Shown here piece after piece: positions 4,021 to 44,447 of a stretch of DNA of 44,560 nucleotides. A model generated the notes under the pieces. It did no database searches and was not told where the DNA came from. It was given only the letters and a program-made list of their open reading frames with translations. The DNA is from an uncultured Pseudomonadales bacterium (GTDB taxonomy: Bacteria; Patescibacteriota; Microgenomatia; UBA1400; PJMF01). Position numbers and translations under genes: made by a program. Within the stretch, counting starts at the first letter, position 1; every line of letters begins with the position of its first letter. The stretch covers positions 25,413 to 69,972 of the forward strand of contig CAZNOF010000002.1 in NCBI GenBank assembly GCA_964574595.1. Direction: 5' to 3'.

Positions 4021-4075
4021 TGGGCTGGAGCAAGCTGATCCTTATGTGGACAAGCACCCAGCTCGTCTGTAGTAT

Positions 4076-5220: not shown

Positions 5221-5242
5221 TAATCACTACCGATTGGAAATT

Positions 5243-8994: not shown

Positions 8995-9058
8995 ATCTAT
9001 CAAATAATAGCAGAGATTCCGTCTGGTTTAGCGAGGAAATATTTAGTATCCTAATCTC

Positions 9059-15171: not shown

Positions 15172-15247
15172 GGATTCGAACCCTCGGTGACCTTGCAGCC
15201 ACAGTAGTTTTCAAGACTACCGCACTAAACCACTATGCGACCTCTCC
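15161..15247 (-). tRNA. tRNA-Ser(TGA)
   Basis: Folds as a cloverleaf: acceptor GGAGAGG/CCTCTCC; anticodon stem GTAGT/ACTAC with loop CT-TGA-AA; long variable arm; GAGGG-TTCGAAT-CCCTC; discriminator G; CCA not encoded. Upstream TGgTAAAAT at 15283-15275. Confidence 0.97.
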
Positions 15248-16067: not shown

Positions 16068-16139
16068 GCACCCGTAGTTCAACGGATAGAATGAAGGTTT
16101 GCGGAACCTTTGATCCAAGTTCGATTCTTGGCGGGTGCA
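16068..16139 (+). tRNA. tRNA-Arg(GCG)
   Basis: Acceptor GCACCCG/CGGGTGC; anticodon stem AAGGT/ACCTT with loop TT-GCG-GA (anticodon at 16101-16103); T arm CCAAG-TTCGATT-CTTGG; no CCA. Upstream TGaTAAAAT at 16028-16036. Confidence 0.95.
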
Positions 16140-22159: not shown

Positions 22160-22171
22160 AGAGTTTTGGTT

Positions 22172-23815: not shown

Positions 23816-23837
23816 TGACGTACAGCTCCTTAGAAAA

Positions 23838-24620: not shown

Positions 24621-25913
24621 TTATTGAAACAAATGACTGAACCAAGCATTCGCTTGATACCAAAAGTCTGGGTTCTCAGGTGTCAAAGAAATATGAGCAT
24701 TCTCGATCAGTTCTGAAACAGTAAATGTGGAGTTTTTGTATCCAGGGGCAGTTACCGTGATTGACTCATCTGTGTTGAGATAGGGAACTTGGAAGTTTCG
24801 ACCGACCGCGAGCACGTTATCTCGATCCGAGCGAAAGGTAACCTGATCAACTGTGTTTCCGGCAGTATTAGTAATGGTGCCAACTACAACTTTGGGAGTA
24901 TAGAATTTTTGAATCACCGCTACGGCTGGTTTGGCATCACCATGATCGTTCCAAATGGCGGTTGAACCACCCATATCCGTCCAGTAATTCAGTCCGACTA
25001 AGTGAGGATTCGCTGATAACAACTTGAGGACGTCTTTCACCCATTGAGCTTGTTCGTCGTCCGTCATGGTTCCGTGAATGTCAGGAATGGGAGCGCCAAA
25101 CTCGCCTAATACAACCTGCCCGCCACTACGGGAGGCAACTTCAGTGACATCGTCATTCAGTTGAGTTGGATCTTTTACATAGTGATCGATGACAACCAAG
25201 CCACCTAAAGCAGTCGTTGTCGGTTTGTCCATGACTAAGTCAGCTACATCTTTATTCATGGAATTGAAGTTGACTTGGATACGCTTATCTTGCGCTTTAA
25301 ATTCATCTGTGAGCATTTGATACTCGCGAATAAGGAATTCTCGGTGGCCTTGCACATCACCAGTCTTCCGAGGATCTCCTGGCCCTCCATTTTCACATTC
25401 CGGACAGGCAGAAAAAATATCTCCGTCTTCAAATAAATGCGGGTTCTTCTCTACAAATACTTTAGTCTTCTGGAAGTGTTCATCACGGGAAATAGTTGGA
25501 TAGCTAAACCAACCTTCCCAGCCGGACCAATTTCCTCTGAACCAGACGCGGAGATGGTACTTTCGAGCGGCAGTGACCCAAGTAGTGAGAACTGGCAAAA
25601 ATTCCTCATCATAGGGAGTGCCTATCGCAATATACGTCGCGCCAGTTTCAGAGATGGCTTTTGCTTGCTGATCAGAGATTGTTTGAAGTGTTTTAATGTC
25701 TGACAGATACTGTCTACTTGGATCTCTTGAAAACTTCATGGTATCAATGGACTGAAAGTTCCACCAGGAAGCTGTCTGTTGTGCAAATGACCGCTGGGTA
25801 GCCGATTTTTTCACACTAGTTCCTAGAATAAGCACGGCCATGACCGTGATCAGTAAAATCCCTAGATAGAATGATTGATGTAGTCTCACTAATAAATATT
25901 GTAGCAAATTCAC
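24621..25913 (-). CDS. Membrane-anchored glycoside hydrolase-like (clan GH-A type TIM barrel) protein
   Basis: N-terminal TM helix; candidate acid/base ECENG and nucleophile LGEFG; C-terminal carboxypeptidase-regulatory-like domain; last gene of the glycan operon. Confidence 0.65.
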   Translation of the reverse strand: MNLLQYLLVRLHQSFYLGILLITVMAVLILGTSVKKSATQRSFAQQTASWWNFQSIDTMKFSRDPSRQYLSDIKTLQTISDQQAKAISETGATYIAIGTPYDEEFLPVLTTWVTAARKYHLRVWFRGNWSGWEGWFSYPTISRDEHFQKTKVFVEKNPHLFEDGDIFSACPECENGGPGDPRKTGDVQGHREFLIREYQMLTDEFKAQDKRIQVNFNSMNKDVADLVMDKPTTTALGGLVVIDHYVKDPTQLNDDVTEVASRSGGQVVLGEFGAPIPDIHGTMTDDEQAQWVKDVLKLLSANPHLVGLNYWTDMGGSTAIWNDHGDAKPAVAVIQKFYTPKVVVGTITNTAGNTVDQVTFRSDRDNVLAVGRNFQVPYLNTDESITVTAPGYKNSTFTVSELIENAHISLTPENPDFWYQANAWFSHLFQ

Positions 25914-25915
25914 GT

Positions 25916-27544
25916 CTACTTCTGCTTTCCCAAGATTGGTTGCGTATTGAGGGTAGGAAGATATTCCGGTTTGAGTTCGTAAATATCAGCAAATGGATAG
26001 GATCTCACTAATGAATACTTATACAGTTGTTCTGACTTATTGACTAATTTAAATGTTTGGTCATTTGGGTCATTCGTTCTCATGACAATCCAGCGTGCCC
26101 AACGGTCAGGTTGAGTGGTGCCATTGAGCCAGTAAGTGCCGGTACCTTCGTGAATGAACTTCTTCATTGGTAACCCAGAAGAGAAAATAATTGCATCGTG
26201 AGAAGCGGCAGAAATCAACACAAAGCCCGGTGTGTTCCCAGCATGTTCTTGCAACCAGCCACTCACTTCCGTCACGTTCTTCTGACTTGATCCCACGCGA
26301 CCATCATCAACTGTCACGGCGTCAAAATTGACTATAGAAAAAAAGGTGACAAAGAGTAACAGACTAATAATCAGCCAACGTGATGCTTTCAGTTTGTCTA
26401 TTAAGACTCCGACAAAAATGGCAATGGAGGGAACCATCATGACACCATAGCGAACGTTAAACCACGTATTTCCATTCAAGCCCTGAATAAAGAGCACAGA
26501 GAAGCCAAAGTACAGAGCGATGATATTAAAAATCAAAGGTGCTAGGAGTGCAAGAGAAGCGAGTCGAATTGTCGATGATACTTTTTTGTTAACAAGCAGA
26601 ATGCAGGCACCCACAAAACTAAGTAAAACAGTGAACGTACCACTGTTATAAATCATGGCATACCAATAGGTGCTGATGGACTGACCCCAGTTCTTCTGTG
26701 TTATTAACACACCTGCATCGGCTAATTGCAGTTGTTGTGCATGGGCAGAGTAAGGACCAAAAGCAAAGTAGAGTGGGTCTTTAAAGATTGCTGCATTCCA
26801 AACTACCCACAAAAATATTCCCAGTCCAGCTAAACTACAAAACAAAATGAAAATACCCTCAGCCTTTTTAAGACCACCATTTCTAAATCCATGATATGAA
26901 ACAAGGATTGCTGACATCAAAAATAAGAACCAACCATCATAACGGATGAGCGTGGACAGCATAATCCAGAATGCGACTTTGACTAAATTCAGAATTGAAT
27001 CAGTTTCGTGATAATTGAGAAGTTCGTATACGGCAATAGTCATCGTGAAGATGAGCAAAAGCTCGGTCATGGCTGTTGATTGAAGGTACAAAATATTTAA
27101 ATTTGTGACAAAGATGGCTACACCAGCTAATCGGCCAATCATGCCCACTTTGAGTTTCTCTAAAATCCGATAAATTAAATATCCAGTAGCTACAAATGAG
27201 ATCATTGACTGAATTGCTCCTGATAAACCAGAGTGCCACATGAAGTCATTCCAAATTGTTAAGACCATCAATATATGAGGCAAAGGCAACCAGACAGAAC
27301 CTAACTGTGCCATACCAGGTTTGAGACCTTCAACTACCCGACGACCAATGTCTAGGTGAGATCGGGCATCGTTGTATGCTAGACCAAGTCCATTTCTATA
27401 GAAAATAATGTAACAAGCTACTGAAATAATTGATAAAAAGATCAACAAAAGCGGCACGGCGTGTTTTGTTAGGAAGCCTTGTAATAAAGTCCAAGGATTT
27501 TTAGGAATAGAAAATGAAGTGGTAGGGTTTAAGAGGCTAAACAT
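25916..27544 (-). CDS. GT-C (PMT/ArnT/GT39-like) polytopic glycosyltransferase
   Basis: First external loop YNDARSHLDIGRR...LGSVWLPLPH, AMTE and LIRYDGW motifs; about 11 TM helices; soluble C-terminal domain. Confidence 0.8.
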   Translation of the reverse strand: MFSLLNPTTSFSIPKNPWTLLQGFLTKHAVPLLLIFLSIISVACYIIFYRNGLGLAYNDARSHLDIGRRVVEGLKPGMAQLGSVWLPLPHILMVLTIWNDFMWHSGLSGAIQSMISFVATGYLIYRILEKLKVGMIGRLAGVAIFVTNLNILYLQSTAMTELLLIFTMTIAVYELLNYHETDSILNLVKVAFWIMLSTLIRYDGWFLFLMSAILVSYHGFRNGGLKKAEGIFILFCSLAGLGIFLWVVWNAAIFKDPLYFAFGPYSAHAQQLQLADAGVLITQKNWGQSISTYWYAMIYNSGTFTVLLSFVGACILLVNKKVSSTIRLASLALLAPLIFNIIALYFGFSVLFIQGLNGNTWFNVRYGVMMVPSIAIFVGVLIDKLKASRWLIISLLLFVTFFSIVNFDAVTVDDGRVGSSQKNVTEVSGWLQEHAGNTPGFVLISAASHDAIIFSSGLPMKKFIHEGTGTYWLNGTTQPDRWARWIVMRTNDPNDQTFKLVNKSEQLYKYSLVRSYPFADIYELKPEYLPTLNTQPILGKQK

Positions 27545-27545
27545 A

Positions 27546-30500
27546 TTAGTCGCGATTCCTATTTATAAACAGCGCCATAAATTGGGTGAGCAGAACGAAG
27601 CCAATTACTCCAATGATTACTTCTGTGAATTCCCAGGCAGTCAAATATTGATGTGCGTACTCTTGAAAAATAAATGATTTAGATTTATTAGCATTCAGCA
27701 TCTGCATATTTCTAGTAAAGGTGTATCGTTCCTGGACATGACTCATTGCTTCAATTGCTAATACCTCAACTTTTGGTGGGTTTCTATTTGAAGTAACGGC
27801 TCCGATAGTGTTAACACTCACGGCATACATACCGATTACGAGTATCGTAAATAAAATCAAAATATTTTTTCTCCAATGACTAATGACTTGTCCGAGTAAG
27901 ATGGCAAGGATGGAGTATGCCGGAATCATGTATCGTGAACCGAATGCCCAGCCTCCATATGGATCTCCCCACATAGAATAGAGGAGAATATCAGCCCCAA
28001 TCACTCCTGCCAATAAATTGGTGTAGCCAATATTTCTTTTAGATAATAGCAGAAGACCAATAAACCCAATTAAAATAATTGGTGTGTAGGTAATCATTCC
28101 GCGGTCTAAGCTCAGAAAATGTTCATAAAGTCCATTTGGTAACTGTCTTGTATCAAAGAAACCTAAAGCATTTCTACTTTCTGTTTTTGCTTCAGTCTTC
28201 TCGTTGTCAGGAATTTGTTGGTTCCCAATATCGACTATGTCTGGAGTATGGAGCTCGCTGACATTTTTTGCACTTGATGCAGTTCCAGCTAACTGGAACG
28301 GATTGCCATATGACATTTGATTGAAGTACATGAAGAAAGCGATTGGTAATACCATCACGGCCATTGTGACGAGTCCTGCCCAATGAATATTGATTTGATA
28401 TTTTTTGATTTTATCTTCAACATTGACCACTCTGCCTAATGCAAACAGACCAATTGGGAACATCAAGAATAAATTGGGGTTATCTACTGAAATAGAAATA
28501 GCACAGCAGAACCAGACAATGGCTAGTGCCCAAGGACTTTTGTGTCTTAGCAACGTATAGATTGAGAAAAGAATCAAGAATGTTGAAATGTGATGCTGAT
28601 ATAAAGTTACTGCATATGGAAATGCGGGTGTGGCAAATAAAAAGAACATGGCGGCGATGGTGGCTGCACTAGGTCTAGCACCAAGTCTAATTGCAATGGC
28701 ACGAATCAGCACGGCATTAAATACGGCAAACAATGAGATGACTGCAAACGAACCAACCTGAGAGTAACCTAGTGTTTTGCCAAGAATGTACCCGGGCATC
28801 ACAATATATGAGACCGTTGGAGCAAATAGCGAAACAAAGTAGCCATTCGCTGTGGCAACGTCTGGTAAAGCAAATTTCGCAATTGGAAGTGAGAAGTGGA
28901 ATGAATGATCTTCCGCTAATGAGTAGGTGAGCGCAAATCGGCCACGTTCAGGAGAAAGTTCAAGTGGGCCATTATCCATCCAGCGATCTGAATTTAATTC
29001 TGAGCTGGTTGGGTTGCCTTTGAGTCCACGAAGGGCCGCAACTAAAATGAGCATGCAAATCAGTGCAAACCAAAGGGTGCCCGTTTTTTTAAAGAATGAG
29101 ATTGGCAATAAAAATACTTTCAGTGCCGCATTTATTTTTTCAGAAACGTTCTTTTTGAGTCGAATAATTGACATGAAGACTGACCATAAGCGTAAACCAG
29201 TAGGTGTTAAGAGTGTTTTTAAGAAGCCAGGACTCATATTATTTTCAATCGAAATTCGATGGAAAAGATACTTGTCGTCTGCTTTAGAAAATGGTCTGTC
29301 ATCAACCGTGAAGGCTGCTTCGAACTCTGCATTTTTGACAGCCGCCATAGTAATGTCCGAATAGTATCCTTTGGGATACGCAAAGTATCTTGTTTGGATC
29401 TTTGTTCTTTTTTCAAAATCTTTTTTTCCTCTCCCAATTTCGGCCGAAAGTCCGATTGGTGACAGAGATGACAGATCAGCATGAGTTGCAGTGTGAAATC
29501 CAATTTCCCAGTCTTCTTTTGCTAAAACGCGTAACTCCTTATCGTCTAGCAGTGGTAACTGATTATTCATTTCATCACGTTGAGCTTTTTCAGGATTGCC
29601 AACCATAAAAATAGTTGCGTTTTTTCGTAGTTTCTTTAACAGTGGAAAGGCGAACTCTATAACGCTCTGGTATCCATCATCAAATGTAATAGCCACTCCT
29701 GAGCCAGATTTTACTACCTGACTTAACTTACTTATTTTGAAGGTTTTATTGAGAAATGAGATCTGTTCTGAAAACTCATCAGCATCTGTAGAGAATTGCC
29801 AGTTATTCAACCCAATATTGTGATAGCAAAGGATAATTGCTTTCTCGGTTGGCTTATACAAAAATGGCAGAAGCTTGTAGATTGTTTCAAGTAAAGTAAA
29901 AGCGATAGTGTATATCTTCACAAATACTGATTTGGTTGGAACAAAATCAAAAAGTGATGTCTTTGCTGATTCTGACATGTGACTATTCTTTGCATCCAAG
30001 GCTAGTGATTTTAGTGTGCCGTAAATTGAGAGTGCTTTCCATCGTCTTTTCTCTTCGGAAGATTTTAAGAAAAGTGAGCAAAAATCTACTGCTCTATTGA
30101 TCCCTAATTGCTTTTGGTAAAGTCTTGGGATTTGTGCCAGATCATAAAGGGGATCAGAAAAAACGGCGTTTTCCCAATCTGCCAACAGCAAAGTCTTTCC
30201 ACCCACTAAGATATTGTCAGAATCAAGATCACCATGAATGAGTGCTGGTTGAATTCTCTTAAAGAGAGTTGGTGTGTACAGTCGCACGAAGACGATTGTG
30301 GACCTTAGAGTTTGTAACAAGAGGCTGGGGTTTCTAACACCAGCTTGTAGTCCGTATAAAATGCCTCTGAGAAGCAATGAAAAGGTACTTTGAGTTGCAA
30401 TCTGCTTTGCCTCCTCAGTCTTGTGGAGCTTCATTTGAATATTTGTGAGGAATCCGAAGATGTCTACCAGAGATTTGATTACAACATCTGGTTCAGAGAA

Positions 30501-30815
30501 TGTTAATTTATCGCCAGCAACGAGTTCTGTACTAAAAGTTGTTGAGTTTTTCTCAACATGTTCAGATACGAGCTGAGGAGACTGGACGGAAAAGGCTCTC
30601 CCTTTCCATGGACTCAATTTCCCAACAGCTGATAACGCATGTAACTCATTGAGCAAGAAGTAATTTTCAATATCTGGTAACAAAAAAGTATGTCGTTTAG
30701 TAAACACTTTTTTTGTGGCACTCTTTTGTAATTTTCCTAATTCTACTCGCGATTTTTTATCAACTCTGAGGATTCGATTAATGATGCTGGTAAGGTGGAG
30801 GATATTAGAAAACAT
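27546..30815 (-). CDS. 1089-aa fusion: APH/choline-kinase-like + CE4 polysaccharide deacetylase + GT-C membrane domain
   Basis: Kinase HGDLDSDNIL...LADWE...DPLYDL; CE4 CYHN, ITFDDGY, FHTATH, FAYPKG; then about 520 aa of polytopic GT-C-like sequence (ELSPERGRF, WGDPYGGWAFGSRYMIP). Confidence 0.85.
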   Translation of the reverse strand: MFSNILHLTSIINRILRVDKKSRVELGKLQKSATKKVFTKRHTFLLPDIENYFLLNELHALSAVGKLSPWKGRAFSVQSPQLVSEHVEKNSTTFSTELVAGDKLTFSEPDVVIKSLVDIFGFLTNIQMKLHKTEEAKQIATQSTFSLLLRGILYGLQAGVRNPSLLLQTLRSTIVFVRLYTPTLFKRIQPALIHGDLDSDNILVGGKTLLLADWENAVFSDPLYDLAQIPRLYQKQLGINRAVDFCSLFLKSSEEKRRWKALSIYGTLKSLALDAKNSHMSESAKTSLFDFVPTKSVFVKIYTIAFTLLETIYKLLPFLYKPTEKAIILCYHNIGLNNWQFSTDADEFSEQISFLNKTFKISKLSQVVKSGSGVAITFDDGYQSVIEFAFPLLKKLRKNATIFMVGNPEKAQRDEMNNQLPLLDDKELRVLAKEDWEIGFHTATHADLSSLSPIGLSAEIGRGKKDFEKRTKIQTRYFAYPKGYYSDITMAAVKNAEFEAAFTVDDRPFSKADDKYLFHRISIENNMSPGFLKTLLTPTGLRLWSVFMSIIRLKKNVSEKINAALKVFLLPISFFKKTGTLWFALICMLILVAALRGLKGNPTSSELNSDRWMDNGPLELSPERGRFALTYSLAEDHSFHFSLPIAKFALPDVATANGYFVSLFAPTVSYIVMPGYILGKTLGYSQVGSFAVISLFAVFNAVLIRAIAIRLGARPSAATIAAMFFLFATPAFPYAVTLYQHHISTFLILFSIYTLLRHKSPWALAIVWFCCAISISVDNPNLFLMFPIGLFALGRVVNVEDKIKKYQINIHWAGLVTMAVMVLPIAFFMYFNQMSYGNPFQLAGTASSAKNVSELHTPDIVDIGNQQIPDNEKTEAKTESRNALGFFDTRQLPNGLYEHFLSLDRGMITYTPIILIGFIGLLLLSKRNIGYTNLLAGVIGADILLYSMWGDPYGGWAFGSRYMIPAYSILAILLGQVISHWRKNILILFTILVIGMYAVSVNTIGAVTSNRNPPKVEVLAIEAMSHVQERYTFTRNMQMLNANKSKSFIFQEYAHQYLTAWEFTEVIIGVIGFVLLTQFMALFINRNRD

Positions 30816-32635: not shown

Positions 32636-32642
32636 GATAGTC

Positions 32643-37265: not shown

Positions 37266-37771
37266 ATTGTTTTCTCCTTAAAGTACAAAATATCTTGAGT
37301 GTCACGTCCAATAAAGTGTGCTACTGCCTGAACTGCTCTAGCAAGAAATGTTTGGCGATTTTTACGTTTATTTACAATAGACTTGAATGTGGCATAGTCA
37401 CGAATGTAGTCACTTTCGTTGTAGTGCTTTGAAGCAACAACAAAAAGAACTGTATCTTTTTTAAACTCATGCATTTCTCTCCAGATCATGTTCCCCAGGT
37501 AGAGCCCTTTACTGGGTTTATCCAAGATAATTGTCTTTCTCTCTTCACCAGTATCTAGTACGATCTTCAACTTTCCATGAATACAAAAAAGGACTTGCTC
37601 AAGCTGTTGATGAGCATGCTTTCCACGGACATTTCCTTCATCTGCGTTGTAAATCATATAGAAACGATTAATTGGAAAGGGGATATGTTTTTTTGTTTCT
37701 GCAAAACTCAAGCTAGCTTCGTCGACTATGGTAGGAATAGTTATGATTTTATAAAGTGGTTTTTTTGCCAT
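37262..37771 (-). CDS. fdtA: FdtA/QdtA-family cupin (dTDP-4-keto-6-deoxyhexose 3,4-ketoisomerase)
   Basis: IPFPINRFYMIY, VRGKHAH, GLYLGNMIWREM and YNESDYIRDY motifs. Confidence 0.9.
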   Translation of the reverse strand: MAKKPLYKIITIPTIVDEASLSFAETKKHIPFPINRFYMIYNADEGNVRGKHAHQQLEQVLFCIHGKLKIVLDTGEERKTIILDKPSKGLYLGNMIWREMHEFKKDTVLFVVASKHYNESDYIRDYATFKSIVNKRKNRQTFLARAVQAVAHFIGRDTQDILYFKEKTI

Positions 37772-37775: not shown

Positions 37776-38906
37776 TTATCTCAAGCCTTTTCTAGGTGTT
37801 TTCTTGTCTAAGATTTCATAGAAAAACGCTTCAAACTGGTCAGCGGTATTATCCCAACTGAACTGCTTGGCAAAACTTCGACACTTGTCATACATTTTGG
37901 ACAAGTTTGGATTTTCCATTGCAGATAAAAGTGTTTTGGCGTAGTCGTCAGTATCAAATGGCTTTGCTTTAAATCCGTATTCATTGGTAATGAACTTCAA
38001 CTCAGGAATATCAAAGCAGGCAATCGGTAAGCCAGCGGCCAATGCCTCTAAACCAAAGATTGGTAAGTCATCGTATCGTGATGAGAATGCCACAAATGCA
38101 GCCTTTGAGAGTACGTCGAGTTTTTTCTCGCCAAAGGTTGAACCAATCATTTTCACTTTGTCTTCTAATTTGTAGTCATGAATAAGTTGTTCGACCTTTT
38201 GTTGATCAGCACCATGACCGGCAATAACTAAAGGATACTTTGCCTTTTTAGCAATTTTGGCATATGCCTCTAACAACAGGTCGATACCTTTTTGATCAAC
38301 ATCTAATCTACCTAAGAAGAGAATGTATTCAGCCTTTTTCCGTTTAATTTCAAAGTACTCTTTATCAGCACCTTGAAGGACGATTCTGGCCTCAATATGA
38401 GGATTTCTTTTTTGCATTCTGGTCAGAATGTCTTTAGTGTATGGCAAGAAATATCGATAGTAGGGCAGTAAGGCATACTCAATCCAGTGAAATGGTAATT
38501 TGTACTTTCTGGAGAACTCGGCAGCTGCAAATTGCGAGGGGAGCCCCACCACAGGTGCTTTTGCATACAACGGACTGCCCATCGTTGAGATTGGGGCGGT
38601 GAAACACTCAATAATGATATCTGTCATTAATTTAGGAACTGCAAAAGGTAAGGCGAAGAAGTAGGCAAAGTTGTTAAGTCTGATGAATTTTGATCCTAGG
38701 CCAATGTGTTTGTAGTAAATTCCGTTTTCGACTCGATCTTTATATCCAGGGTATTTTGAACACAAAGACGTCACAGTATGACCCTTCTCAACCAATCTCT
38801 TTCCAACGGCGACCGTGGCAAGTGATTGACCGCCGGCCAACAACGGATTCTTGACGTCGTCAAAGTCTAAATAGGTAATTCGTAACTTTTGTTTATTTTT
38901 ATTCAT
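37776..38906 (-). CDS. GT4 glycosyltransferase
   Basis: AGGQ N-terminal motif, FLGRLDVDQKG, and DDLPIFGLEALAAG (E-x7-E variant). Start is ATG 38906, overlapping the upstream stop by 8 nt. Confidence 0.9.
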   Translation of the reverse strand: MNKNKQKLRITYLDFDDVKNPLLAGGQSLATVAVGKRLVEKGHTVTSLCSKYPGYKDRVENGIYYKHIGLGSKFIRLNNFAYFFALPFAVPKLMTDIIIECFTAPISTMGSPLYAKAPVVGLPSQFAAAEFSRKYKLPFHWIEYALLPYYRYFLPYTKDILTRMQKRNPHIEARIVLQGADKEYFEIKRKKAEYILFLGRLDVDQKGIDLLLEAYAKIAKKAKYPLVIAGHGADQQKVEQLIHDYKLEDKVKMIGSTFGEKKLDVLSKAAFVAFSSRYDDLPIFGLEALAAGLPIACFDIPELKFITNEYGFKAKPFDTDDYAKTLLSAMENPNLSKMYDKCRSFAKQFSWDNTADQFEAFFYEILDKKTPRKGLR

Positions 38907-41900
38907 ACACTTCCACAACACCTGCCTGTGCAGTTGCTTCACTTGTTATATTCATTGATGACTCTAATACTGCCAAAAACTTTTGTGCGTTCTTATTCCA
39001 CTGAAAACCTTGTGCCCATTTATATGCAGCTGACGAAAGTTTTGTTCGCTTTTTACCATCTTGGATCAAATCAATAATTGCATCAGCCAGCTGATCTGGT
39101 TTTTTTGGAGCAACAAGTACGCCAGTTACTCCATCCTGAATAGAGTCTTTTAGTCCTTTTACATTTGAGGCGATGACTGGAGTCTTTGCGGCATTTGCTT
39201 CAATGACAGTAATACCCCAACCTTCAATCATTGATGGCTGAACAGCAATCCAACTCTCAGCAAATAATTCGGCTTTTTCTTTGTTGGTGATATTGCTTCT
39301 AAATTCGATATTTTGGCTCAAGTGTAGCTTTTCGGTGAGTTGAATGAGTCCAGTTCTGGCCTCACCTGATCCGCCAATAGTGAGTTTTGCATTAGGGTAT
39401 TGTTGTACTACTTTACTGAATGACTGAATCAGTACGTCTACATTCTTATATGCTTTGAGTCTACCCACATATACCAGAGAAGGATGAGTTGTCTTCTTTT
39501 TTGTGACAAATGCTGATGAACTTACTCCTGGATTCACAATATCAATAGAACTCGTATCTCCCAAACCGATTTTAATTATTTCTGCTTTAGAAGATTCAGA
39601 AACAGTAATGATTTTTTGTGACTTGTAGAAAACCGGCATGACCGTTCCTTCAATAAAGTTAGCTACGGCAGCTAATGGGAAGGATAAGTGTTCTCGAAAA
39701 ACTTCCTGATGAATATGGTGAATTAAGAGAAATTTTGGTTTTCGAGCGTAGAGTGGCGTTAAGAATGGAATGCCGTTTTCGCAGTCAATAATCACATCAA
39801 AGTGATTTCGGAGCTTAAGTGTGTAGTAAATGAATGCCCAGAAATACACTGTGTAAAAGCCACCTCTGCGAATAACTTGCACACCATTCACCTTTTCGTT
39901 TCTTGGACTCTTACCATCATTTCCACAGAAAATCGTGACAGAATGACCGGTCATTACTAAGTGTTCAGCAATTTCTTGAATATAGCTTTCAGCGCCGCCA
40001 GCCCAAACATGTTTCGTATCTCGCCAGTTAAAAAAGAGAACGCTGTAGTTGTCTCGGAGTAAATCTGACTTCTTGCGTTGAGGTAATTTGGCAAATAAAT
40101 CTAAAGCGTCAGTAAAATTAGTTAATGGGGTTTTGATTTTGTCATAAAACCAATCAAGAAGTGCAAGCACTACTAAGTTAGCTAGACCAGTCAAAAACAT
40201 AATATAAATAATGTCTTGCAAATTGCGATGGAAGAATGCAAAACCTGCCACTTGGAAAATTGCCAGTACAAAAGCTACAAATGGGAAAAGATAATTGCGT
40301 TTTGCTAAATGATAGTTTGCATAGACCTGAGAAATATTAAATAAGGCGATTCCAAGACAGTAGAGAGGCAAATAGCTGGCAATGGCAATCAATTTTTGAC
40401 TATAAAGAGCAGCTCCAAACCTTGGCAGAATCAGTCCCAAACAAATAAATCCGGCAAAACTCACAAAGGCTGTGGACCAAATTAAAATGACAAATGGACG
40501 ATCCGTTTTCTTACCGCTGCCTTCATGATGAGAAATGATGGGCGTAATAAAGGTCAAAATTAAATTTCCTGCAAAGTAAATAATTTTCCCGATCAGTCCT
40601 AAGAATGCATACTTTCCTGCTTCTTCTGCACCTAAGTAGTGAGCTACGAGAAGATTGTCTAGACTAAAGAAAGCGATGGTTGATAGCCCTGCTAACAGTG
40701 CCAGCCAGAAAAACTTAGGTGGCAAGTTAAAGTTCTTAACATCTGCTATGGTGTCTTTTTCTTTTCTAGCATAGTAGTAAGCAACTAAAAAGCTGACTAC
40801 GGTTGAGATTGGGATTGCTAAGTAAAGCATCCGACCCCATTGCAAGTGAGCAATGACCACAGTACTTATGATCCTAACTAAAGGCTCAACAATTGCCACA
40901 AGCGCCACCGCGCCAAACATCATTCGACCTTTGATATATCCACGGTCCACGTTCGTTAAGACAGTAATCAAAAGAAGTGGAGCAAATACCAAAATTGGTA
41001 CGATAGTCGGAGTTCCAAAAAGGGTTTGCAAAAGTGGAGACAAGGCTATCCAAAGACAAACTGCCACAAGACTAATAATGAGCGAACTTCTTCGAATTGA
41101 TCTCCAAAATTCATAGATCGAATTACTCTTGTATTTACCTGTTAAGTACGCAGTTTGATGATTAATTGTTGTAGCGAGAGCACTCGTTGGAATCATTAAA
41201 AGGTACAGGATACTCGTAAAGGTATTGACCACCCCAAAATCGGCAAATGGTAAGACGTGACCAGTATAAATATTGGTTAACAGGTTCAGCACGTTTGCTG
41301 AGATATTTGCAATAATGAGGAAGAAAGCTGCTCTATATGCTGGTTGCTTGCATTTTTCAATGAAATCACACAGAGCTTGTTTGTTCAGCTTCTTTCTAAG
41401 TAGGGTAAATCGGTTGACTCTTTGTGAAGTAATAGTTAGAACAGGCTCTGCTTTTTTCTCGATCATCAACTCAGTTTCTACTTCAGCATTAACCACTGTA
41501 TCAGCAACTGCATTTTCCGCTGCTTCTTCAAGCTGCTTTTTGACATGCAGACCATGAACAGTTTTTTCCCAGTAGTGTGGTTTTACGATAAGTTGGTAAA
41601 GGGCAATCGTGGCCGCGACACTGACGAGTAACCAGTAAACTGGAATTAAAAATACCCATTTGATGATTGTCCAGTGATCTCGTTTGGCCGCACCAATCAT
41701 GTAGTAGTAGATAAAGAAAAAGTTTCCAAAAACAAGGGATGTCACAGCCATGTAAAAGACTGAGGCCGGGTAGAAGGATTCAATTGTAGGTCCAACAAGA
41801 GCGTAAAGCGCAAAATAAGATGCTGTTAATAACCACATAAATGGGTTAATTAACATGAAGGCAATTTTCCCACCCATGACCAATTGGAATAAGAGTGCGT

Positions 41901-43683
41901 GCAACCCATACTCTTTGAAAAACTTGTATGGATTTCGCATGTGGACCAAGTAGGTCTGCATGTAGCCTTTGATCCATCTTGATCTTTGACGTAGCCAGTT
42001 GCTCCAGCTACTATTTGCTTCTTCTAGAGTAATTGAGTCAATGATGGCGGTTCTTCCGCCACGTTTAAACAATCGAATTCCTAGGTCAGCATCTTCAGTG
42101 ACGTTGAAAGAGTCCCAACCTTCCAGATCTTTAAGATCTGAGGTACGGAAGTGGTTACTGGTACCGCCTAGGGGTAAGGATGTTTCAATACTTTGCAAGC
42201 CGGTCAGTACAACGTCAAACCAAAGAGAGTACTCAGCAGTAAAAAAGCGGGTTAATAAGTTCTGGTGAGGGTTATAGAAATTTAACTTGGCCTGAATACA
42301 CTTAACTGCTTCCGGAGATTTTAGGAAAGCTAAATAGACTTTCTTCAATTGAAGTGGATCTGGTACATCTTCAGCATCGTAAATAACCAAAAACTCGCCT
42401 TTGGCAAAATGAAGGCCATAGTTACATGCTTTCGGTTTGGTCTTCGGTTGAGAGTCTGGAACTACTTGTACTGTCACGAAAGGAGGTAACTTCATTTGGG
42501 AAGCAGCTTTAATGGTTACTAAGTCGTCTGCTTCTAATAATAAGATGACGTCAAGTTTCTTTTTTGGCCAGTCCATTTTTTCAATAGCTGACACAAACTG
42601 TGGCAACACGTGCGCTTCTTTATAAAGAGGGCATAGCACCGTATATATAGGTAAGTCTTTTTCTGATAAAGAAGAAATTTCTTTAGGTTCAATTTTCAGT
42701 TCTGGAGGTTGGTGCAAGCTTTTTAAAATGACGTAAAGATTAAAAAAGACATCTACAAAGTAGATAAAACTAAGTACTGCAACAAATAGTTTGACAGTTC
42801 CAACGAAATCTAAGAAAAGACTGCCAATAAAAAATGATCCTAAAGCAATTAGGAAAGCCCTTTGTGGTGATGTTAAAACATTGACAGCTGAGTCATCAGA
42901 AAGCAGGGTGGTATGAGTGATAAATCGCTTGCCCTTGTGATACATTCCAGCACCAAGCATATTTTCTTGACTGTCCGGCAGGATTTGTATGTTTCGTTTA
43001 TGCTTCAATTTATAGGCAACCGCTTGACCACCAATTTCTTTTACAGAGGTTAATAAATGAATCTTAGACTCACCTTTTGATCGTTTCTCAAAAGTGATGG
43101 AAACTTCATCAATTGAGTAGCCTAAGTTCATAGCTGTCGTCAATAAAGGAATATCTAGTGTCCAGGCAGTAACTTGACTGGTTTGTAAATGAGAAATGAC
43201 CTCTTTAGAAAATACTTTCAGACCAGACTGAACATCACAATGTAACCCATGTAGAACATTGCCAAAGAACCACTGGAATCCACGACTTAAAAAATGTCGA
43301 ACTTTACTTTCTTGATAGTCGTGACGACGGGCCACCACAACGGCTCCTGCTTGGGCTTTCTCCAGCATTTCGGGAATGGCTTCTGGGGGATACTGCAGAT
43401 CGGCGTCGATCATTGCTAAGTAAGGTGCTTTAGCTGCTTTTGCTCCTTCAAGAATTGAGTAAGCTTTTCCTTTATTTCCTTTTTTTGAAAGAGCAGTAAT
43501 GGGATATCTCTTGGCTAAAGATTGCAAAATTTTTAAACTACTGTCTGTAGAATGGTCATCGACAAAGTAGAGATGGTATGAGATTTTAGCTTTGTGAAAT
43601 GTGCTATCGAGTCGACCAATTAACGCAACTAAATTTTCAGCTTCGTTATAGACTGGGATGATGACGTCAATTTGCGATGGCAT
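38899..43683 (-). CDS. 1594-aa fusion: DPM1-like GT2 + processive synthase-type GT2 + Wzx-like flippase + GT4
   Basis: aa 1-225: IIPVYNEA, DDHSTD, DADLQYPP. aa ~270-710: PLYKEA, KPKACN, YDAED (42367-42378), GGTSNHF, TED (42091-42099), QRSRW (41974-41988), with flanking TM helices. aa ~785-1180: about 12 TM helices with FADFGVVNTFTSI and GAEEAGKYA. aa ~1210-1580: FNWRD..AGGAE, VGRLKAYKN, EGWGITVIEA. Confidence 0.9.
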   Translation of the reverse strand: MPSQIDVIIPVYNEAENLVALIGRLDSTFHKAKISYHLYFVDDHSTDSSLKILQSLAKRYPITALSKKGNKGKAYSILEGAKAAKAPYLAMIDADLQYPPEAIPEMLEKAQAGAVVVARRHDYQESKVRHFLSRGFQWFFGNVLHGLHCDVQSGLKVFSKEVISHLQTSQVTAWTLDIPLLTTAMNLGYSIDEVSITFEKRSKGESKIHLLTSVKEIGGQAVAYKLKHKRNIQILPDSQENMLGAGMYHKGKRFITHTTLLSDDSAVNVLTSPQRAFLIALGSFFIGSLFLDFVGTVKLFVAVLSFIYFVDVFFNLYVILKSLHQPPELKIEPKEISSLSEKDLPIYTVLCPLYKEAHVLPQFVSAIEKMDWPKKKLDVILLLEADDLVTIKAASQMKLPPFVTVQVVPDSQPKTKPKACNYGLHFAKGEFLVIYDAEDVPDPLQLKKVYLAFLKSPEAVKCIQAKLNFYNPHQNLLTRFFTAEYSLWFDVVLTGLQSIETSLPLGGTSNHFRTSDLKDLEGWDSFNVTEDADLGIRLFKRGGRTAIIDSITLEEANSSWSNWLRQRSRWIKGYMQTYLVHMRNPYKFFKEYGLHALLFQLVMGGKIAFMLINPFMWLLTASYFALYALVGPTIESFYPASVFYMAVTSLVFGNFFFIYYYMIGAAKRDHWTIIKWVFLIPVYWLLVSVAATIALYQLIVKPHYWEKTVHGLHVKKQLEEAAENAVADTVVNAEVETELMIEKKAEPVLTITSQRVNRFTLLRKKLNKQALCDFIEKCKQPAYRAAFFLIIANISANVLNLLTNIYTGHVLPFADFGVVNTFTSILYLLMIPTSALATTINHQTAYLTGKYKSNSIYEFWRSIRRSSLIISLVAVCLWIALSPLLQTLFGTPTIVPILVFAPLLLITVLTNVDRGYIKGRMMFGAVALVAIVEPLVRIISTVVIAHLQWGRMLYLAIPISTVVSFLVAYYYARKEKDTIADVKNFNLPPKFFWLALLAGLSTIAFFSLDNLLVAHYLGAEEAGKYAFLGLIGKIIYFAGNLILTFITPIISHHEGSGKKTDRPFVILIWSTAFVSFAGFICLGLILPRFGAALYSQKLIAIASYLPLYCLGIALFNISQVYANYHLAKRNYLFPFVAFVLAIFQVAGFAFFHRNLQDIIYIMFLTGLANLVVLALLDWFYDKIKTPLTNFTDALDLFAKLPQRKKSDLLRDNYSVLFFNWRDTKHVWAGGAESYIQEIAEHLVMTGHSVTIFCGNDGKSPRNEKVNGVQVIRRGGFYTVYFWAFIYYTLKLRNHFDVIIDCENGIPFLTPLYARKPKFLLIHHIHQEVFREHLSFPLAAVANFIEGTVMPVFYKSQKIITVSESSKAEIIKIGLGDTSSIDIVNPGVSSSAFVTKKKTTHPSLVYVGRLKAYKNVDVLIQSFSKVVQQYPNAKLTIGGSGEARTGLIQLTEKLHLSQNIEFRSNITNKEKAELFAESWIAVQPSMIEGWGITVIEANAAKTPVIASNVKGLKDSIQDGVTGVLVAPKKPDQLADAIIDLIQDGKKRTKLSSAAYKWAQGFQWNKNAQKFLAVLESSMNITSEATAQAGVVEVYE

Positions 43684-43896: not shown

Positions 43897-44346
43897 TTAG
43901 CGCAAATGTGCTAATAGTTCTTCAACTGCTCGTTCACTACTTTTCCAGTGACTGACCTCTTTGCCGCGTTCATTAATTTGCACAAGCTCATCTTGAGCGA
44001 CAACATTGTATTTTGCTTTAAGTTCTTTATTCGTGTCAATATTCACTCGGAATATCACAACATCTGCTGGTATTTGTTGAGCATGTTCCTGGAAGTTTTT
44101 CTCCACTAAATAGCAAGTTGAACACCAGCTTGCTTGAAAAAAGAGAACGACACGCTTGTGTTCCTGAAGCTTCTGATCAGCCAATTCTGGACTGTATGTC
44201 AGAATTGGTACATTTTCATTTGCCGTGAATGTTTTTTGATTACAGGTTTGCTCTTTGGCTAAACATGGGTTGAGTTTAGCTGCCAAAAATGTAGCTCCAA
44301 TAAGTGATAGGCAAAGTAGAAAAGTGAACTGAGTCTTGTTTCTCAT
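43897..44346 (-). CDS. Exported thioredoxin-fold protein
   Basis: LFFQASWCSTC (CxxC) after an N-terminal signal/anchor; ATG 44346 follows TGaCATAAT-N7. Confidence 0.85.
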   Translation of the reverse strand: MRNKTQFTFLLCLSLIGATFLAAKLNPCLAKEQTCNQKTFTANENVPILTYSPELADQKLQEHKRVVLFFQASWCSTCYLVEKNFQEHAQQIPADVVIFRVNIDTNKELKAKYNVVAQDELVQINERGKEVSHWKSSERAVEELLAHLR

Positions 44347-44447
44347 GTGGCACATTATGTCAGAACTGCTAAAAAAAACCAACGACTAGACTTATCGTAG
44401 TAAAAAGATTGTTTGATTTCTTGAGGAATTCCAGATATGATCATTTT

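Follow-up and report, generated by a model that had tools for sequence, protein, structure and literature searches.

A patescibacterial membrane protein with four modules: polyprenyl-phosphate-type GT2, processive-type synthase, Wzx-type flippase and GT4

The ArnB-ArnC-ArnD-ArnE/F-ArnT pathway has lipid A as its acceptor and uses a small SMR-like pair as flippase in place of a MOP protein, and it includes neither a synthase nor a GT4 enzyme. Lipid-primed synthases are represented by the Salmonella O:54 WbbE/WbbF system and by pneumococcal Cps3S. In the Pel system PelG is a member of the PST/MOP family. The genes pelF and pelG are conserved as a pair; UDP-GalNAc is polymerised by PelF, and a part in export is ascribed to PelG (PMC7112168). 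NfrB of E. coli is a GT2 exopolysaccharide synthase activated by c-di-GMP (PMC8669469, PMC8669472). For the GacI/J/K/L type of system it was proposed that a Wzx-type flippase flips Und-P-monosaccharides, with which a GT-C enzyme decorates a polymer exported by another route (bioRxiv 10.1101/180810, PMC8035078).

The window analysed here, a stretch of 44,560 nucleotides from an uncultured member of the Patescibacteria, encodes a membrane protein of 1594 residues whose single chain runs from a lipid-carrier sugar transferase through a cellulose-synthase-like polymer synthase and a Wzx-type flippase to a GT4 glycosyltransferase. Because the four modules (M1 to M4) are joined in one conserved protein, two sugar-polymer routes that are normally taught as alternatives probably cooperate inside one machine. 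The parts of the gene are as follows.

38899..43683, minus strand: four-module protein, complete ORF (ATG start, 1594 aa and stop codon)
42979..43683, minus strand: Module 1, residues 1-235, soluble GT-A GT2 of the polyprenyl-phosphate glycosyltransferase type (ArnC/DPMS/GtrB-like; Pfam, NCBIfam, PDB, Foldseek)
42871..42978, minus strand: connector, residues 236-271, conserved and structured, modelled as a beta-hairpin, consensus GAGxxHKxKRFITHTTL (alignment and model)
41551..42870, minus strand: Module 2, residues 272-711, membrane-integrated processive-type GT2 synthase with the BcsA/HAS fold (Pfam, NCBIfam, PDB, Foldseek)
41332..41550, minus strand: variable linker, residues 712-784, with a long predicted helix at 712-743 (alignment and models)
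40096..41331, minus strand: Module 3, residues 785-1196, 12-TM MOP/PST (Wzx-type) flippase-like module (hydropathy, Pfam, HHalign, model)
38902..40044, minus strand: Module 4, residues 1214-1594, GT4 with GT-B fold, retaining type (Pfam, Foldseek, invariant catalytic residues)

The ORF runs in one frame without interruption and carries all four motif sets where an earlier interpretation, made from the letters alone (the sequence-only reading), had placed them. All four modules exceed curated Pfam thresholds, and the domain identities proposed in that reading agree with Pfam, NCBIfam, PDB, Foldseek and HHalign. A rare architecture had been implied; it is in fact common in Microgenomates-type Patescibacteria, and identical architectures were found in more than 120 full-length homologs from independent assemblies (47-81 % identity, 98-100 % coverage). 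Across 66 homologs in the same identity range the catalytic motifs of M1, M2 and M4 do not vary, so that each module is under selection. Fusion of four neighbouring genes by assembly or sequencing errors at the linkers is so improbable that it can be set aside: the more than 120 homologs, which rule it out, stay in frame across all three junctions, the single four-module ORF is present in nine species-representative genomes, two independent assemblies agree on the closest ortholog (81 % identity), which is syntenic, and on the order of the genes that flank it, and the element at the first junction is both structured and conserved. The analysis establishes what the four modules are, that they are intact and conserved, and that they are genomically coupled to each other and to a GT-C enzyme.

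M1 has no TM segment of its own. It matches Glycos_transf_2 in Pfam (PF00535, residues 7-134, E 2e-33), ArnC (1.6e-21), PgfS and AglJ in NCBIfam, and DPMS (5mlz, 5e-20), GtrB and ArnC among PDB sequences. Its model superimposes on ArnC, DPMS and GtrB with an rmsd of 2.7-3.2 A over about 230 columns (Foldseek), ArnC giving 2.7 A. The motifs are DDH (42-44) and DAD (93-95); D42, D43, D93 and D95 are invariant in the 66-homolog alignment. GtrB, ArnC and DPMS bind polyprenyl phosphate through juxtamembrane and TM helices, which M1 does not have; this counts against the fused assembly line described below. In Firmicutes a neighbouring M1-like GT2 carries its own GtrA_DPMS_TM domain; in CPR M1 this domain is absent and a MOP flippase is present instead.

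The three stretches that the sequence-only reading called linkers do coincide with module boundaries, but the first is not floppy. In residues 236-271 G246, T256 and H257 are invariant, the model has a pLDDT of 91-94, and strands span 246-249 and 252-255; the alignment of standalone M2 homologs begins at about residue 249-265. The second (712-784) has no conserved columns in the homolog alignment, and its pLDDT is low in both models (N-half 48-62, C-half 41-78). The third, between M3 and M4, is a short loop. The AlphaFold2 two-domain models are confident overall (pTM 0.82 and 0.79), and this modelling suggests that M1/M2 and M3/M4 are docked modules, not beads on a string.

M2 consists of two N-terminal TM segments, the GT-A domain with interface helices, and about four further TM segments; the TM segments come from hydropathy. 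The module matches Glyco_tranf_2_3 / Glyco_trans_2_3 (residues 347-627, E 1e-28); its best NCBIfam family is PgaC_IcaA (1.3e-28), its PDB sequence match is BcsA (1.9e-12), and Foldseek aligns its model with BcsA 4p00 (446 columns, rmsd 5.3 A) and with hyaluronan synthases. DAED (436-439), TED (529-531) and QRSRW (566-570) are invariant in the 66 homologs, and the cytosolic loop PHYWEKTxHG (702-711) is invariant too. The DAED variant had been called NfrB-like, and motif alignment bears this out: NfrB has HDAEDV, TEDYD and RQKSRWI where M2 has YDAEDV, TEDAD and RQRSRWI. Homologs of M2 from Chloroflexota, Actinomycetota and Bacillota (47-50 % identity) are fused to one to six MshEN domains, a c-di-GMP receptor, and have DPMS-type GT2s and PMT_2-type GT-C proteins as neighbours; in one case, from Desulforamulus (L075), a BcsB-domain gene adjoins. 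By its MshEN-bearing homologs, the BcsB-domain neighbour and the NfrB motifs, M2 behaves as a true EPS synthase family.

Relatives in which the parts are adjacent separate genes were found, as the sequence-only reading had suggested looking for. The arrangements M1M2|M3M4, M2|M3M4, M2|M3, M1M2M4|M3 and M2M3M4, with further splits and fusions, provide Rosetta-stone evidence, and the tight pairs are M1-M2 and M3-M4. The first pair raises the alternative of a lipid-primed synthase, in which the polyprenyl-phosphate-sugar made by M1 is the primer or acceptor that M2 processively extends into the polymer, and the GT-C enzyme passes the completed lipid-linked chain, by ligation or transfer, to the last acceptor. 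No other fusion is as tight or as widespread as M1-M2, its connector is conserved and structured, its two-domain model is the one with pTM 0.82, M1-like genes accompany M2 in Firmicutes and Dormibacterota too, and an M2 and GT-C fusion occurs in Chloroflexota. We nevertheless consider this quite unlikely, as many M2 homologs have no M1 nearby (the M2M3M4 proteins; 11 of the 18 non-CPR loci), the GtrA_DPMS_TM domain of the Firmicutes M1-like proteins is typical of donors for extracytoplasmic GT-C enzymes and not of primers, and the direct fusion of an M1-like GT2 to a GT-C domain in one locus (L064) points to a donor-user relationship.

The assignment of M3 as a Wzx/PST-type member of the MOP superfamily comes from sequence profiles. 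Hydropathy gives 12 TM segments at 785-1176, and the model is of high confidence with helices throughout. Polysacc_synt (PF01943, residues 785-1051) scores 31.3 bits in the whole protein and 34.9 bits with the module alone, Polysacc_synt_3 (PF13440) 41.8 bits with the module alone. HHalign to E. coli WzxC gave a probability of 91.6 % (E 8e-7, 309 colinear columns); similarity to RfbX was weak. These above-threshold Pfam matches and the alignment to WzxC favour the MOP/Wzx fold proposed earlier for the region of about 12 TM segments. The clade is very divergent, with most members falling short of the Pfam thresholds. Relatives that stand alone (410-470 aa) match MOP-clan families exclusively in Pfam, and the sole annotated plasmid match is an 'oligosaccharide flippase family protein'. 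Conserved residues are D1009, G1023, Y1025, G1032 and K1033. M4 matches Glycos_transf_1 (PF00534) / Glyco_transf_4 (PF13439) over residues 1229-1570 (E 4e-44), and in Foldseek MshA, BshA, PimA, PglA and WaaG with a target-normalised TM-score of up to 0.82; its motif is E1487-x7-E1495, and the catalytic residues are invariant.

M3 was accompanied by M4 in 16/16 loci, and of the six loci with M4 but no M3 some still have the GT-C. The tightest tie of M3 is to M4 and not to M1. Both observations count against the fused assembly line; the data therefore do not require that M3 flips the product of M1. The chain could instead hold two polymer machines, M2 being one and a Pel-like pair the other: M4 as a GT4 polymerase (compare PelF) and M3 as a PST-type exporter (compare PelG) would make and export a second polysaccharide without a lipid carrier, while M1 and the GT-C enzyme decorate one of the two polymers. 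Among two-module fusions M3-M4 is the most frequent (about 720-850 aa), pelF-pelG likewise pairs a polymerase with an export-implicated protein (PMC7112168), and the operon encodes CE4 deacetylases, as in Pel. Weighing on the other side, six long loci have M4 without M3, that is, a polymerase minus its exporter; the CE4 domains are predicted to be cytoplasmic and are fused to ATP-dependent kinase-like domains, whereas PelA is periplasmic; PelD/PelE-like genes were not seen; PelF and PelG are absent from the best 25 of 59 NCBIfam matches; and the best annotated relatives of M3 are Wzx-type flippases. We regard two machines as rather unlikely.

The four-module gene is followed on the same strand by these genes.

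37776..38942, minus strand: second, separate GT4, directly downstream of the four-module gene (Pfam; same position in many related loci)
37262-37771, minus strand: FdtA-like 3,4-ketoisomerase (Pfam PF05523, 2e-45)
36168-37265, minus strand: DegT/ArnB-family aminotransferase (Pfam PF01041, 2e-123)
35250-36158, 34348-35370, 31718-32650 and 30817-31827, minus strand: four GT2 genes (Pfam)
32643-34346, minus strand: P567, APH-like kinase fused to a CE4 deacetylase, among the GT2 genes (Pfam)
27546..30815, minus strand: P1089, N-terminal APH-like kinase and CE4 deacetylase (predicted cytoplasmic) fused to a polytopic membrane domain (Pfam, TM prediction)
25916..27544, minus strand: GTC542, candidate divergent PMT_2-type GT-C glycosyltransferase (family Pfam matches, conservation)
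24621..25913, minus strand: EXO430, conserved exported protein with one N-terminal TM segment (conservation)
23838-24485, minus strand: P215, small secreted protein with a C-terminal LAATG sorting signal (signal kept in homologs)
23252-23815, minus strand: sortase adjoining P215 (Pfam Sortase)

The ketoisomerase and aminotransferase would probably supply an amino-dideoxy sugar nucleotide; the pair is syntenic in the closest relative, yet variable, occurring in 1-5 other loci only. Paralogs of the operon GT2s occur in about 30 related loci; three of the four have one predicted C-terminal TM segment, and 31718-32650 has none. TM prediction found neither a TM segment nor a signal sequence in P567. 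Homologs of P1089 are present in 22/28 long CPR loci. In relatives a gene immediately upstream of the GT-C encodes its membrane domain on its own, as a conserved protein of about 520 aa; the domain matched no Pfam family, and relatedness to GTC542 was not detected. EXO430 (19/28 long CPR loci) has invariant acidic residues E133, E172, E174 and E271; relatives were not found in Pfam, NCBIfam or PDB, and its similarity to the GH5 domain of L064 was not significant.

GTC542 is the most conserved partner of M2. At least seven TM segments are predicted in it, with a C-terminal domain outside the membrane, and D59, right after TM1, is invariant in its family, which is present in 24/28 long CPR loci and 9/18 non-CPR loci. 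PF13231 (PMT_2) matches 6 of 16 family members (best E 2.6e-8) and PF02366 (PMT) matches one; the window's own GTC542 matched no GT-C Pfam model, which counts against the fused assembly line. Among the 'downstream GT-C enzymes' of the sequence-only reading, a GT-C-like nature is supported for one family. The GT-C is present in 9/9 long CPR loci without M1 in cis, which likewise counts against that line. L051 and L057 encode M2 fused to a GTC542-like domain; L064, in which the M1-like GT2 is so fused, has a GH5 as well. Two of the three M1M2 paralogs of L028 each adjoin a GT-C gene.

A PMT-type GT-C could act on proteins instead. M1, M4 and other glycosyltransferases would then build a lipid-linked glycan, M3 would flip it, and Ser/Thr residues of secreted proteins, for instance the sortase-anchored P215, would receive it from the GT-C; the exopolysaccharide made by M2 would be unrelated. 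The PMT_2 and PMT matches are to protein-mannosyltransferase families, the AglJ match of M1 recalls the archaeal AglJ/AglR-type logic that begins on a monophosphate carrier, and P215 of the window joins its LAxTG signal to a 27-residue Ser/Asn/Gly-rich tract, with the sortase at the operon end. An LAxTG or LPKTG signal with hydrophobic stretch and basic tail is found in 13/14 P215 homologs, and the position of P215 and the sortase at the 3' end of the cluster is conserved. The Ser-rich tract, however, is not kept in the homologs, all non-CPR loci that retain M2 and GT-C are without P215 and sortase, and the direct M2 and GT-C fusions argue for a GT-C acting on or with the M2 product. Protein O-glycosylation therefore seems to us improbable.

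We tentatively favour, at somewhat less than an even chance, a fused membrane assembly line for a decorated cell-surface glycopolymer, combining the synthase-dependent route with the lipid-carrier route ('multi-component transmembrane glycosylation'); its substrates, step order and acceptor are inferred. M2, as a BcsA/NfrB-type processive GT2, would make the backbone from a nucleotide sugar and thread it through its own TM channel. M1, held at the membrane by its fusion to M2, would load a sugar onto polyprenyl phosphate; no WecA/WbaP-type priming phosphoglycosyl transferase was found within the window, and M1 would thus be the only lipid-loading enzyme. On the cytoplasmic face M4 would elaborate the lipid-linked sugar, probably joined by the extra GT4, the four GT2s and the cytoplasmic CE4 deacetylase/kinase proteins; M3 would then flip it, and outside GTC542 would transfer it to the emerging backbone. 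This assembly line is supported by the fusions of M2 (L051, L057) and of an M1-like GT2 (L064) to GT-C domains, by the GT-C genes beside M1M2 paralogs in L028, by the frequent presence of the GT-C in CPR and non-CPR loci, by the EPS-synthase traits of M2 and by the MOP flippase that CPR loci have where Firmicutes have the GtrA_DPMS_TM domain. The similar pipeline of the sequence-only reading (backbone, lipid loading, extension, flipping, GT-C) is, as a proposal, in line with the comparative evidence, these fusions included; its domain calls and pipeline are largely supported, its interpretation overall partly.

Compared with NfrB, M2 has the same membrane-integrated GT2 plan and the unusual DAED, TED and RQxSRWI(x)G motifs, and close non-CPR M2 homologs carry MshEN as NfrB does. 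The identity is 25 % over 172 residues only, the MshEN that is N-terminal in M2 relatives is absent from the window protein, NfrA/YbcH-type outer-membrane partners are absent, and NfrB is not fused to a Pol-P GT2, flippase or GT4. With BcsA, hyaluronan synthase and PgaC M2 shares the GT-A, TM and interface-helix fold and the D, DxD, TED and QxxRW motifs; it differs in lacking PilZ, in sitting among three other modules and, for PgaC, in scoring far under the equivalog cut-off (100 vs 422 bits, NCBIfam). M3 resembles WzxC in its 12 TM segments, its PF01943 and PF13440 matches above threshold and the typical Wzx size of its standalone relatives, but it is fused between synthase and GT4 in a cluster without Wzy, Wzz or priming PGT. 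The likeness to PelF-PelG lies in pairing and operon content, a GT4 and a polytopic membrane protein as a conserved pair beside deacetylases; the differences are the absence of PelD/PelE and the predicted cytoplasmic CE4. As in the Arn pathway, the operon has a DegT-family aminotransferase, an ArnC-like GT2, a cytoplasmic-side CE4-family enzyme, a flippase and a GT-C related to the PMT_2/ArnT group, although here the CE4 is fused to a kinase-like domain. In S. pyogenes each Gac component is a protein of its own, and an ABC transporter exports the polymer, which is assembled on a lipid carrier; here a synthase and a GT4 share one chain with the GT-A and the flippase, and it is presumably the synthase that makes the acceptor polymer. 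The correspondence is otherwise close: M1 resembles GacI, a TM-less cytoplasmic GT-A for polyprenyl-P-sugar, M3 the Wzx-type flippase GacK, and GTC542 the GT-C GacL, which adds the sugar to the polymer outside. The conflict that the sequence-only reading saw between a synthase and a Wzx flippase dissolves because of this precedent of GacI, GacK and GacL.

The four modules of the protein are encoded in a single reading frame:

38899..43683, minus strand: four-module protein, one uninterrupted ORF with an ATG start and 1594 codons plus stop

Pfam matched all four modules that the sequence-only reading had named, and the motifs it had reported were present (DAED at residues 436-439, TED at 529-531, QRSRW at 566-570). 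By hydropathy, two transmembrane (TM) segments lie ahead of the second GT2 domain, about four behind it and 12 within residues 785-1176. Among 5.8 billion proteins more than 120 homologs of full length were found (1533-1638 aa), with 47-81 % identity at a coverage of 98-100 %. The named ones come from Patescibacteria, Microgenomates, Woesebacteria, Gottesmanbacteria or Levybacteria, and their database name is 'glycosyltransferase' only. Gene order around the 81 % identical ortholog is identical, and a separate run gave an identical assembly. On conservation across relatives and on the independently assembled ortholog an assembly chimera was rejected, and merging of four genes by assembly errors is effectively excluded. 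The architecture is not singular, as had been implied, but common among Microgenomates-type Patescibacteria.

In 66 full-length homologs every catalytic motif of the three transferase domains was invariant; the flippase module was the least conserved. Between the first and second modules (nucleotides 42871-42978) the junction is conserved and modelled with confidence as a beta-hairpin element (G246, T256, H257), the next (41332-41550) is a variable linker of low model confidence, and the third (40045-40095) is a short loop. A promoter scan upstream of the gene gave no signal above chance. A membrane-anchored thioredoxin-like protein is encoded directly upstream (43897-44382, minus strand). Such a gene is likewise directly upstream in the locus of the 81 % ortholog (L083), and near the four-module gene in only one other of the 80 loci.

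The first module (M1, residues 1-235) matched Glycos_transf_2 (PF00535) at residues 7-134. It carries the motifs DDH (42-44) and DAD (93-95), in which D42, D43, D93 and D95 are invariant. The nearest NCBIfam families for residues 4-212 were ArnC, PgfS and AglJ, with scores far below the equivalog cut-offs. The best matches among PDB sequences were archaeal DPMS (5e-20), GtrB (7e-14) and ArnC (9e-14), and in Foldseek the model superposed on ArnC, DPMS and GtrB with an rmsd of 2.7-3.2 Å over about 230 columns. The GT-A fold, the DxD and the DPM1-like acidic residues are present. M1 has neither TM helices of its own nor juxtamembrane helices for binding polyprenyl phosphate (Pol-P): residues 1-271 contain no TM segment, and the segments at 276-320 were assigned to the second module because standalone homologs of that module include them. 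GacI is comparable in that it also lacks TM segments. Fold and DxD together place M1 among the probable Pol-P GT2s of the DPMS/GtrB/ArnC type. Context for the putative transfer to Pol-P comes from a fusion of an M1-like GT2 with a GT-C (locus L064) and from Firmicutes, where M1-like neighbours carry GtrA_DPMS_TM.

The second module (M2, residues 272-711) matched the Pfam families Glyco_tranf_2_3 and Glyco_trans_2_3 at residues 347-627. In NCBIfam, residues 307-701 were nearest to PgaC/IcaA, with a score far below the equivalog cut-off; among PDB sequences M2 matched BcsA. D387, D436AED439, T529ED531 and Q566RSRW570 were invariant in the 66 homologs. The AF2 model of residues 1-760 (pLDDT 86.8, pTM 0.82) superposed in Foldseek on BcsA over 446 columns (rmsd 5.3 Å) and also on hyaluronan synthases. 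Motifs, hydropathy and model thus show the features of a synthase, namely D, DxD, TED and QxxRW in a GT domain with interface helices and a TM bundle. The proposed likeness of the DAED motif to NfrB was borne out: the NfrB and M2 motifs read HDAEDV/YDAEDV, TEDYD/TEDAD and RQKSRWI/RQRSRWI, and the two proteins align with 25 % identity (E 6e-5).

Chloroflexota, Actinomycetota, Bacillota and Dormibacterota have homologs of M2 with 47-50 % identity. Seven of these non-Patescibacteria homologs were tested, and six bear between one and six MshEN domains at the N-terminus. The six, from Chloroflexota, Actinomycetota and Bacillota, lie in loci L055, L061, L067, L068, L071 and L075 (for example L055:7256-11395 and L075:9170-11422). 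Fusions of MshEN, a c-di-GMP receptor, with glycosyltransferases are known (PMC5013675), and the domain is also part of E. coli NfrB (PMC8669469). Pfam found no c-di-GMP receptor module in the protein of the window. In Desulforamulus the M2 gene is followed by genes for a BcsB-domain protein, a GT2 with GtrA_DPMS_TM, ManC and ManB; in Sporolactobacillus by a GT2 with GtrA_DPMS_TM and a PMT_2-like protein; in Paenibacillus by a PMT_2 protein and an M1-like GT2. In view of these contexts we read M2 as a probable true exopolysaccharide synthase. The Desulforamulus-type cassette looks like an uncharacterised c-di-GMP-controlled exopolysaccharide (EPS) system in cultivable bacteria.

The fourth module (M4, residues 1214-1594) matched Glyco_transf_4 (PF13439) and Glycos_transf_1 (PF00534) at residues 1229-1570, and its EX7E motif (E1487...E1495) is invariant. 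PDB sequence matches were MshA, TarM, PimA/B and PglA. In Foldseek its model matched MshA, BshA, PimA, PglA and WaaG with a target-normalised TM-score of about 0.8. Two Rossmann-like domains and EX7E, the marks of GT4 enzymes, are both present.

The AF2 model of residues 740-1594 (pLDDT 89.4, pTM 0.79) is all-helical in the part that covers the third module (M3, residues 785-1196). All 50 listed Foldseek matches of this model were GT4, and M3 was therefore examined by profiles. In the context of the whole protein, Pfam matched Polysacc_synt at 785-1051 with 31.3 bits (cut-off 28.2). M3 alone scored 41.8 bits with Polysacc_synt_3 (PF13440; cut-off 23) and 34.9 bits with Polysacc_synt (PF01943; cut-off 28.2). 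The MOP-clan thresholds were passed by only three of 21 M3 homologs. An exhaustive profile search found 6,884 representative clusters matching M3 at E <= 1e-3. Many of these stand alone and are 410-470 aa long, and many carry M3 N-terminally in a protein of about 720-840 aa. Ten standalone relatives matched MOP-clan families only, three of them above threshold. In HHalign, single-sequence E. coli WzxC matched the first profile at 53 % probability and a more diverse one at 91.6 % (E = 8e-7, 309 colinear columns); the match to E. coli RfbX was weak (2 % probability). The sole match in annotated plasmids was a haloarchaeal 'oligosaccharide flippase family protein'. Against PDB sequences the M3 profiles found nothing, or GPCR matches only, which are artefacts of TM composition. 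With its 12 TM segments and its profile membership M3 has the hallmarks of PST/Wzx flippases, and we conclude that it is, as far as profiles can tell, a divergent Wzx/PST-type MOP protein. Some relatives with M1, M2 and M4 in one protein (L022:743-4990, L028:9923-14083) have between M2 and M4 a segment of about 200 residues weakly similar to half of M3; a full-length flippase gene lies directly downstream of them.

At least 595 loci with relatives turned up when species-representative genomes were scanned, and the four modules were compared by BLAST with the ORFs of 80 kept loci. All four formed one ORF in nine loci. With a bar marking separate genes, the other arrangements were M2M3M4, M1M2|M3M4, M2|M3M4, M2|M3, M1M2|M3, M2M4, M1M2 alone, and M1M2M4 followed by a separate M3 gene. 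Modules and partners were counted in 28 Patescibacteria-type loci that span 19 kb or more and in 18 non-Patescibacteria loci. In the former M3 was accompanied by M4 in 16 of 16 cases, and M4 occurred without M3 in six. Since M3 is never found there without M4, and M4 is sometimes found without M3, the tight pairs are M1-M2 and M3-M4. The M1-M2 pair bears on an alternative in which M1 primes M2 with a lipid-linked sugar; M2 also occurs in arrangements without M1, such as M2M3M4, and we consider priming unlikely. One locus (L028) has three paralogous M1-M2 genes inside 15 kb (two of them at 3308-5518 and 7215-9491). Loci L001, L003, L004, L006, L017-L020 and others are labelled 'uncultured Gammaproteobacteria', 'Bdellovibrionales' or 'Pseudomonadales' despite a Patescibacteria-type gene and cluster; these labels are probably wrong.

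Thirteen further minus-strand genes, with tiny gaps or overlaps, follow 3′ of the four-module gene, from 43683 down to 23252. They encode a second GT4, FdtA, a DegT aminotransferase, four GT2s (three with one predicted C-terminal TM segment), two kinase-CE4 proteins, a GT-C, an exported protein, a small secreted protein and a sortase. Those discussed below are:

32643-34346, minus strand: second fusion of an APH-like kinase with a CE4 deacetylase (Pfam, TM prediction)
27546-30815, minus strand: P1089, the other APH-like kinase-CE4 fusion (Pfam, TM prediction)
25916-27544, minus strand: GTC542, the GT-C candidate, a 542-aa polytopic protein, most often conserved neighbour of M2
24621-25913, minus strand: EXO430, 430-aa exported protein, in 19 of the 28 long related loci
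23252-24485, minus strand: P215 and the sortase; P215 is small and secreted and ends with LAATG, a hydrophobic stretch and a basic tail

GTC542 occurs in 24 of the 28 long Patescibacteria loci and in nine of the 18 others. The copy of the window alone had no Pfam match. Among 16 members of the family six matched PMT_2 (best E 2.6e-8) and one matched PMT, and an Asp (D59) just after TM1 is invariant. By these family matches a putative GT-C is encoded together with the GT-A and the flippase. In two Chloroflexota loci a GTC542-like domain is fused to the C-terminus of M2 (L051:9776-12781, L057:9713-12622). In Dormibacterota a protein of 1106 aa encoded directly after the M2 gene unites an M1-like GT2, a GTC542-like part and a GH5 cellulase domain (L064:11272-14589). 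A GTC542 copy adjoins two of the three M1-M2 paralogs of L028.

P215 homologs carry LAxTG or LPKTG in 13 of 14 cases, and the sortase gene is always adjacent, where the glycan cluster ends on its 3′ side. At 24545-24517, a short way upstream of P215, there is a strong sigma-70-like site with an extended -10 and 11 of 12 matches. Given its PMT-like family, GTC542 might glycosylate proteins, the sortase substrate P215 for example; we regard this as improbable. P215 and the sortase, like M3, M4, EXO430 and the P1089-type membrane protein, were found in none of the 18 non-Patescibacteria loci. It follows from these absences that the synthase and the GT-C, with or without the Pol-P GT2, form a cross-phylum core, and that flippase and GT4 are a Patescibacteria addition.

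In P1089 the kinase and CE4 parts are further fused to a polytopic membrane domain. Relatives have this domain as a conserved protein of its own, about 520 aa long, with its gene immediately upstream of that for the GT-C. Relatives of this membrane half matched no Pfam family; it was considered as a GTC542 paralog and the similarity was not significant. The kinase-CE4 proteins are predicted to be cytoplasmic because they have no leading TM segment or signal sequence. ArnD acts on the product of ArnC, and the cytoplasmic CE4 of the operon recalls ArnD. EXO430 has invariant acidic residues and the motifs ECENGG and GEFG, reminiscent of clan GH-A glycosidases. Assignment as a GH5-type glycosidase, based on these motifs and on the GH5 fusion in L064, was rejected (HHalign probability against the L064 GH5 domain 0.35 %), and EXO430 had no significant match in PDB, Pfam or NCBIfam.

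A Pfam scan of 31 ORFs of the window found no WecA/WbaP-type priming enzyme, Wzy polymerase or chain-length regulator, and the locus was therefore not classed as a classical Wzx/Wzy system. Few known domains were recognised in the proteins encoded at positions 1-22040, most of which are secreted or anchored. The window has a GC content of about 0.47 at its left end, which drops to about 0.39 in the glycan operon. No regulatory RNA or riboswitch was found in the window, the Rfam matches being two tRNAs only. Outside the operon we noted:

4076-5194: WxL-interacting PG-binding domain
9059-11509: CarboxypepD_reg repeats
13197-14318: GDSL lipase
15161-15247 and 16068-16139: two tRNAs (Rfam)
19848-22040: DNRLRE domain
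22166-23248: acyltransferase_3

We tentatively propose a hybrid, so far undescribed glycopolymer route, in which one polypeptide would make, side by side, a backbone extruded by its synthase and an (oligo)saccharide that is linked to polyprenyl monophosphate and delivered by its flippase. M2 would polymerise the backbone and extrude it. M1, tethered to the membrane through M2, would load a sugar onto Pol-P; M4, and probably other enzymes of the operon, would build further on this lipid-linked sugar at the cytoplasmic side of the membrane, and M3 would flip it. Outside, the dedicated GT-C would move the flipped sugar onto the backbone. The product may be a major envelope polymer of Microgenomates-type Patescibacteria, and the older core (NfrB/BcsA-like synthase, DPMS-type GT2, PMT_2-type GT-C) may be an uncharacterised MshEN/c-di-GMP-controlled EPS system in Chloroflexota, Actinomycetota, Bacillota and Dormibacterota. 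Firmicutes M1-like enzymes carry a GtrA-like TM domain; Patescibacteria M1 does not, and a MOP flippase is present. This fits a replacement of the GtrA-type flipping function by the MOP flippase, perhaps serving a larger head group.

The proposed decoration of the backbone has three weak points: M3 is tied to M4 and not to M1, some loci have M4 and GT-C without M3, and GT-C occurs without M1 in cis. The tie of M3 to M4 bears on another reading, in which the two form a GT4-polymerase/exporter pair like that of Pel (PMC7112168) and one chain holds two polymer machines. We judge that arrangement rather unlikely and prefer decoration of the M2 backbone by flipped, lipid-linked sugars.

The literature searched contained no description of a single polypeptide that joins a Pol-P GT2 and a Wzx-type flippase to a processive synthase and a GT4, or of a cassette of MshEN-controlled synthase, Pol-P GT2 and GT-C; Patescibacteria mentions in the lipocone paper are unrelated to the four-module architecture. 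The fusion offers a testable model for envelope glycopolymer assembly in ultra-small, host-dependent bacteria. It is also a Rosetta stone for the uncharacterised cassette that Actinomycetota and cultivable Firmicutes possess (Desulforamulus, with D. aeronauticus DSM 10349; Paenibacillus, with P. thalictri; Sporolactobacillus), where the cassette is apparently c-di-GMP-controlled and open to genetic study. As a single chain with all parts, the protein is an attractive cryo-EM target in which a flippase might be seen beside the enzymes that feed it.

In textbook schemes synthase-dependent and Wzx-dependent polysaccharide assembly are alternatives. The sequence-only reading, largely right apart from the supposed singularity, had posed the meeting of the two as a conflict; it is not a real one, since the GacI/GacK/GacL scheme provides a precedent. 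There is strong genomic evidence that synthase and Wzx-type machinery cooperate, locked together with the putative lipid-loading enzyme and another transferase in one conserved polypeptide across many uncultivated Patescibacteria. The superfamily of each module was already known, and Pol-P GT2s, Wzx-type flippases and GT-Cs were known to work together. In the GacI/GacK/GacL scheme the polymer is exported by a different route, and its decoration is the work of a GT-A without TM segments, a flippase of Wzx type and a GT-C (bioRxiv 10.1101/180810; PMC8035078). Accumulation of the lipid-linked sugar has been seen for gacL. The model proposed here would share that scheme, with the difference that it is bolted onto a synthase.
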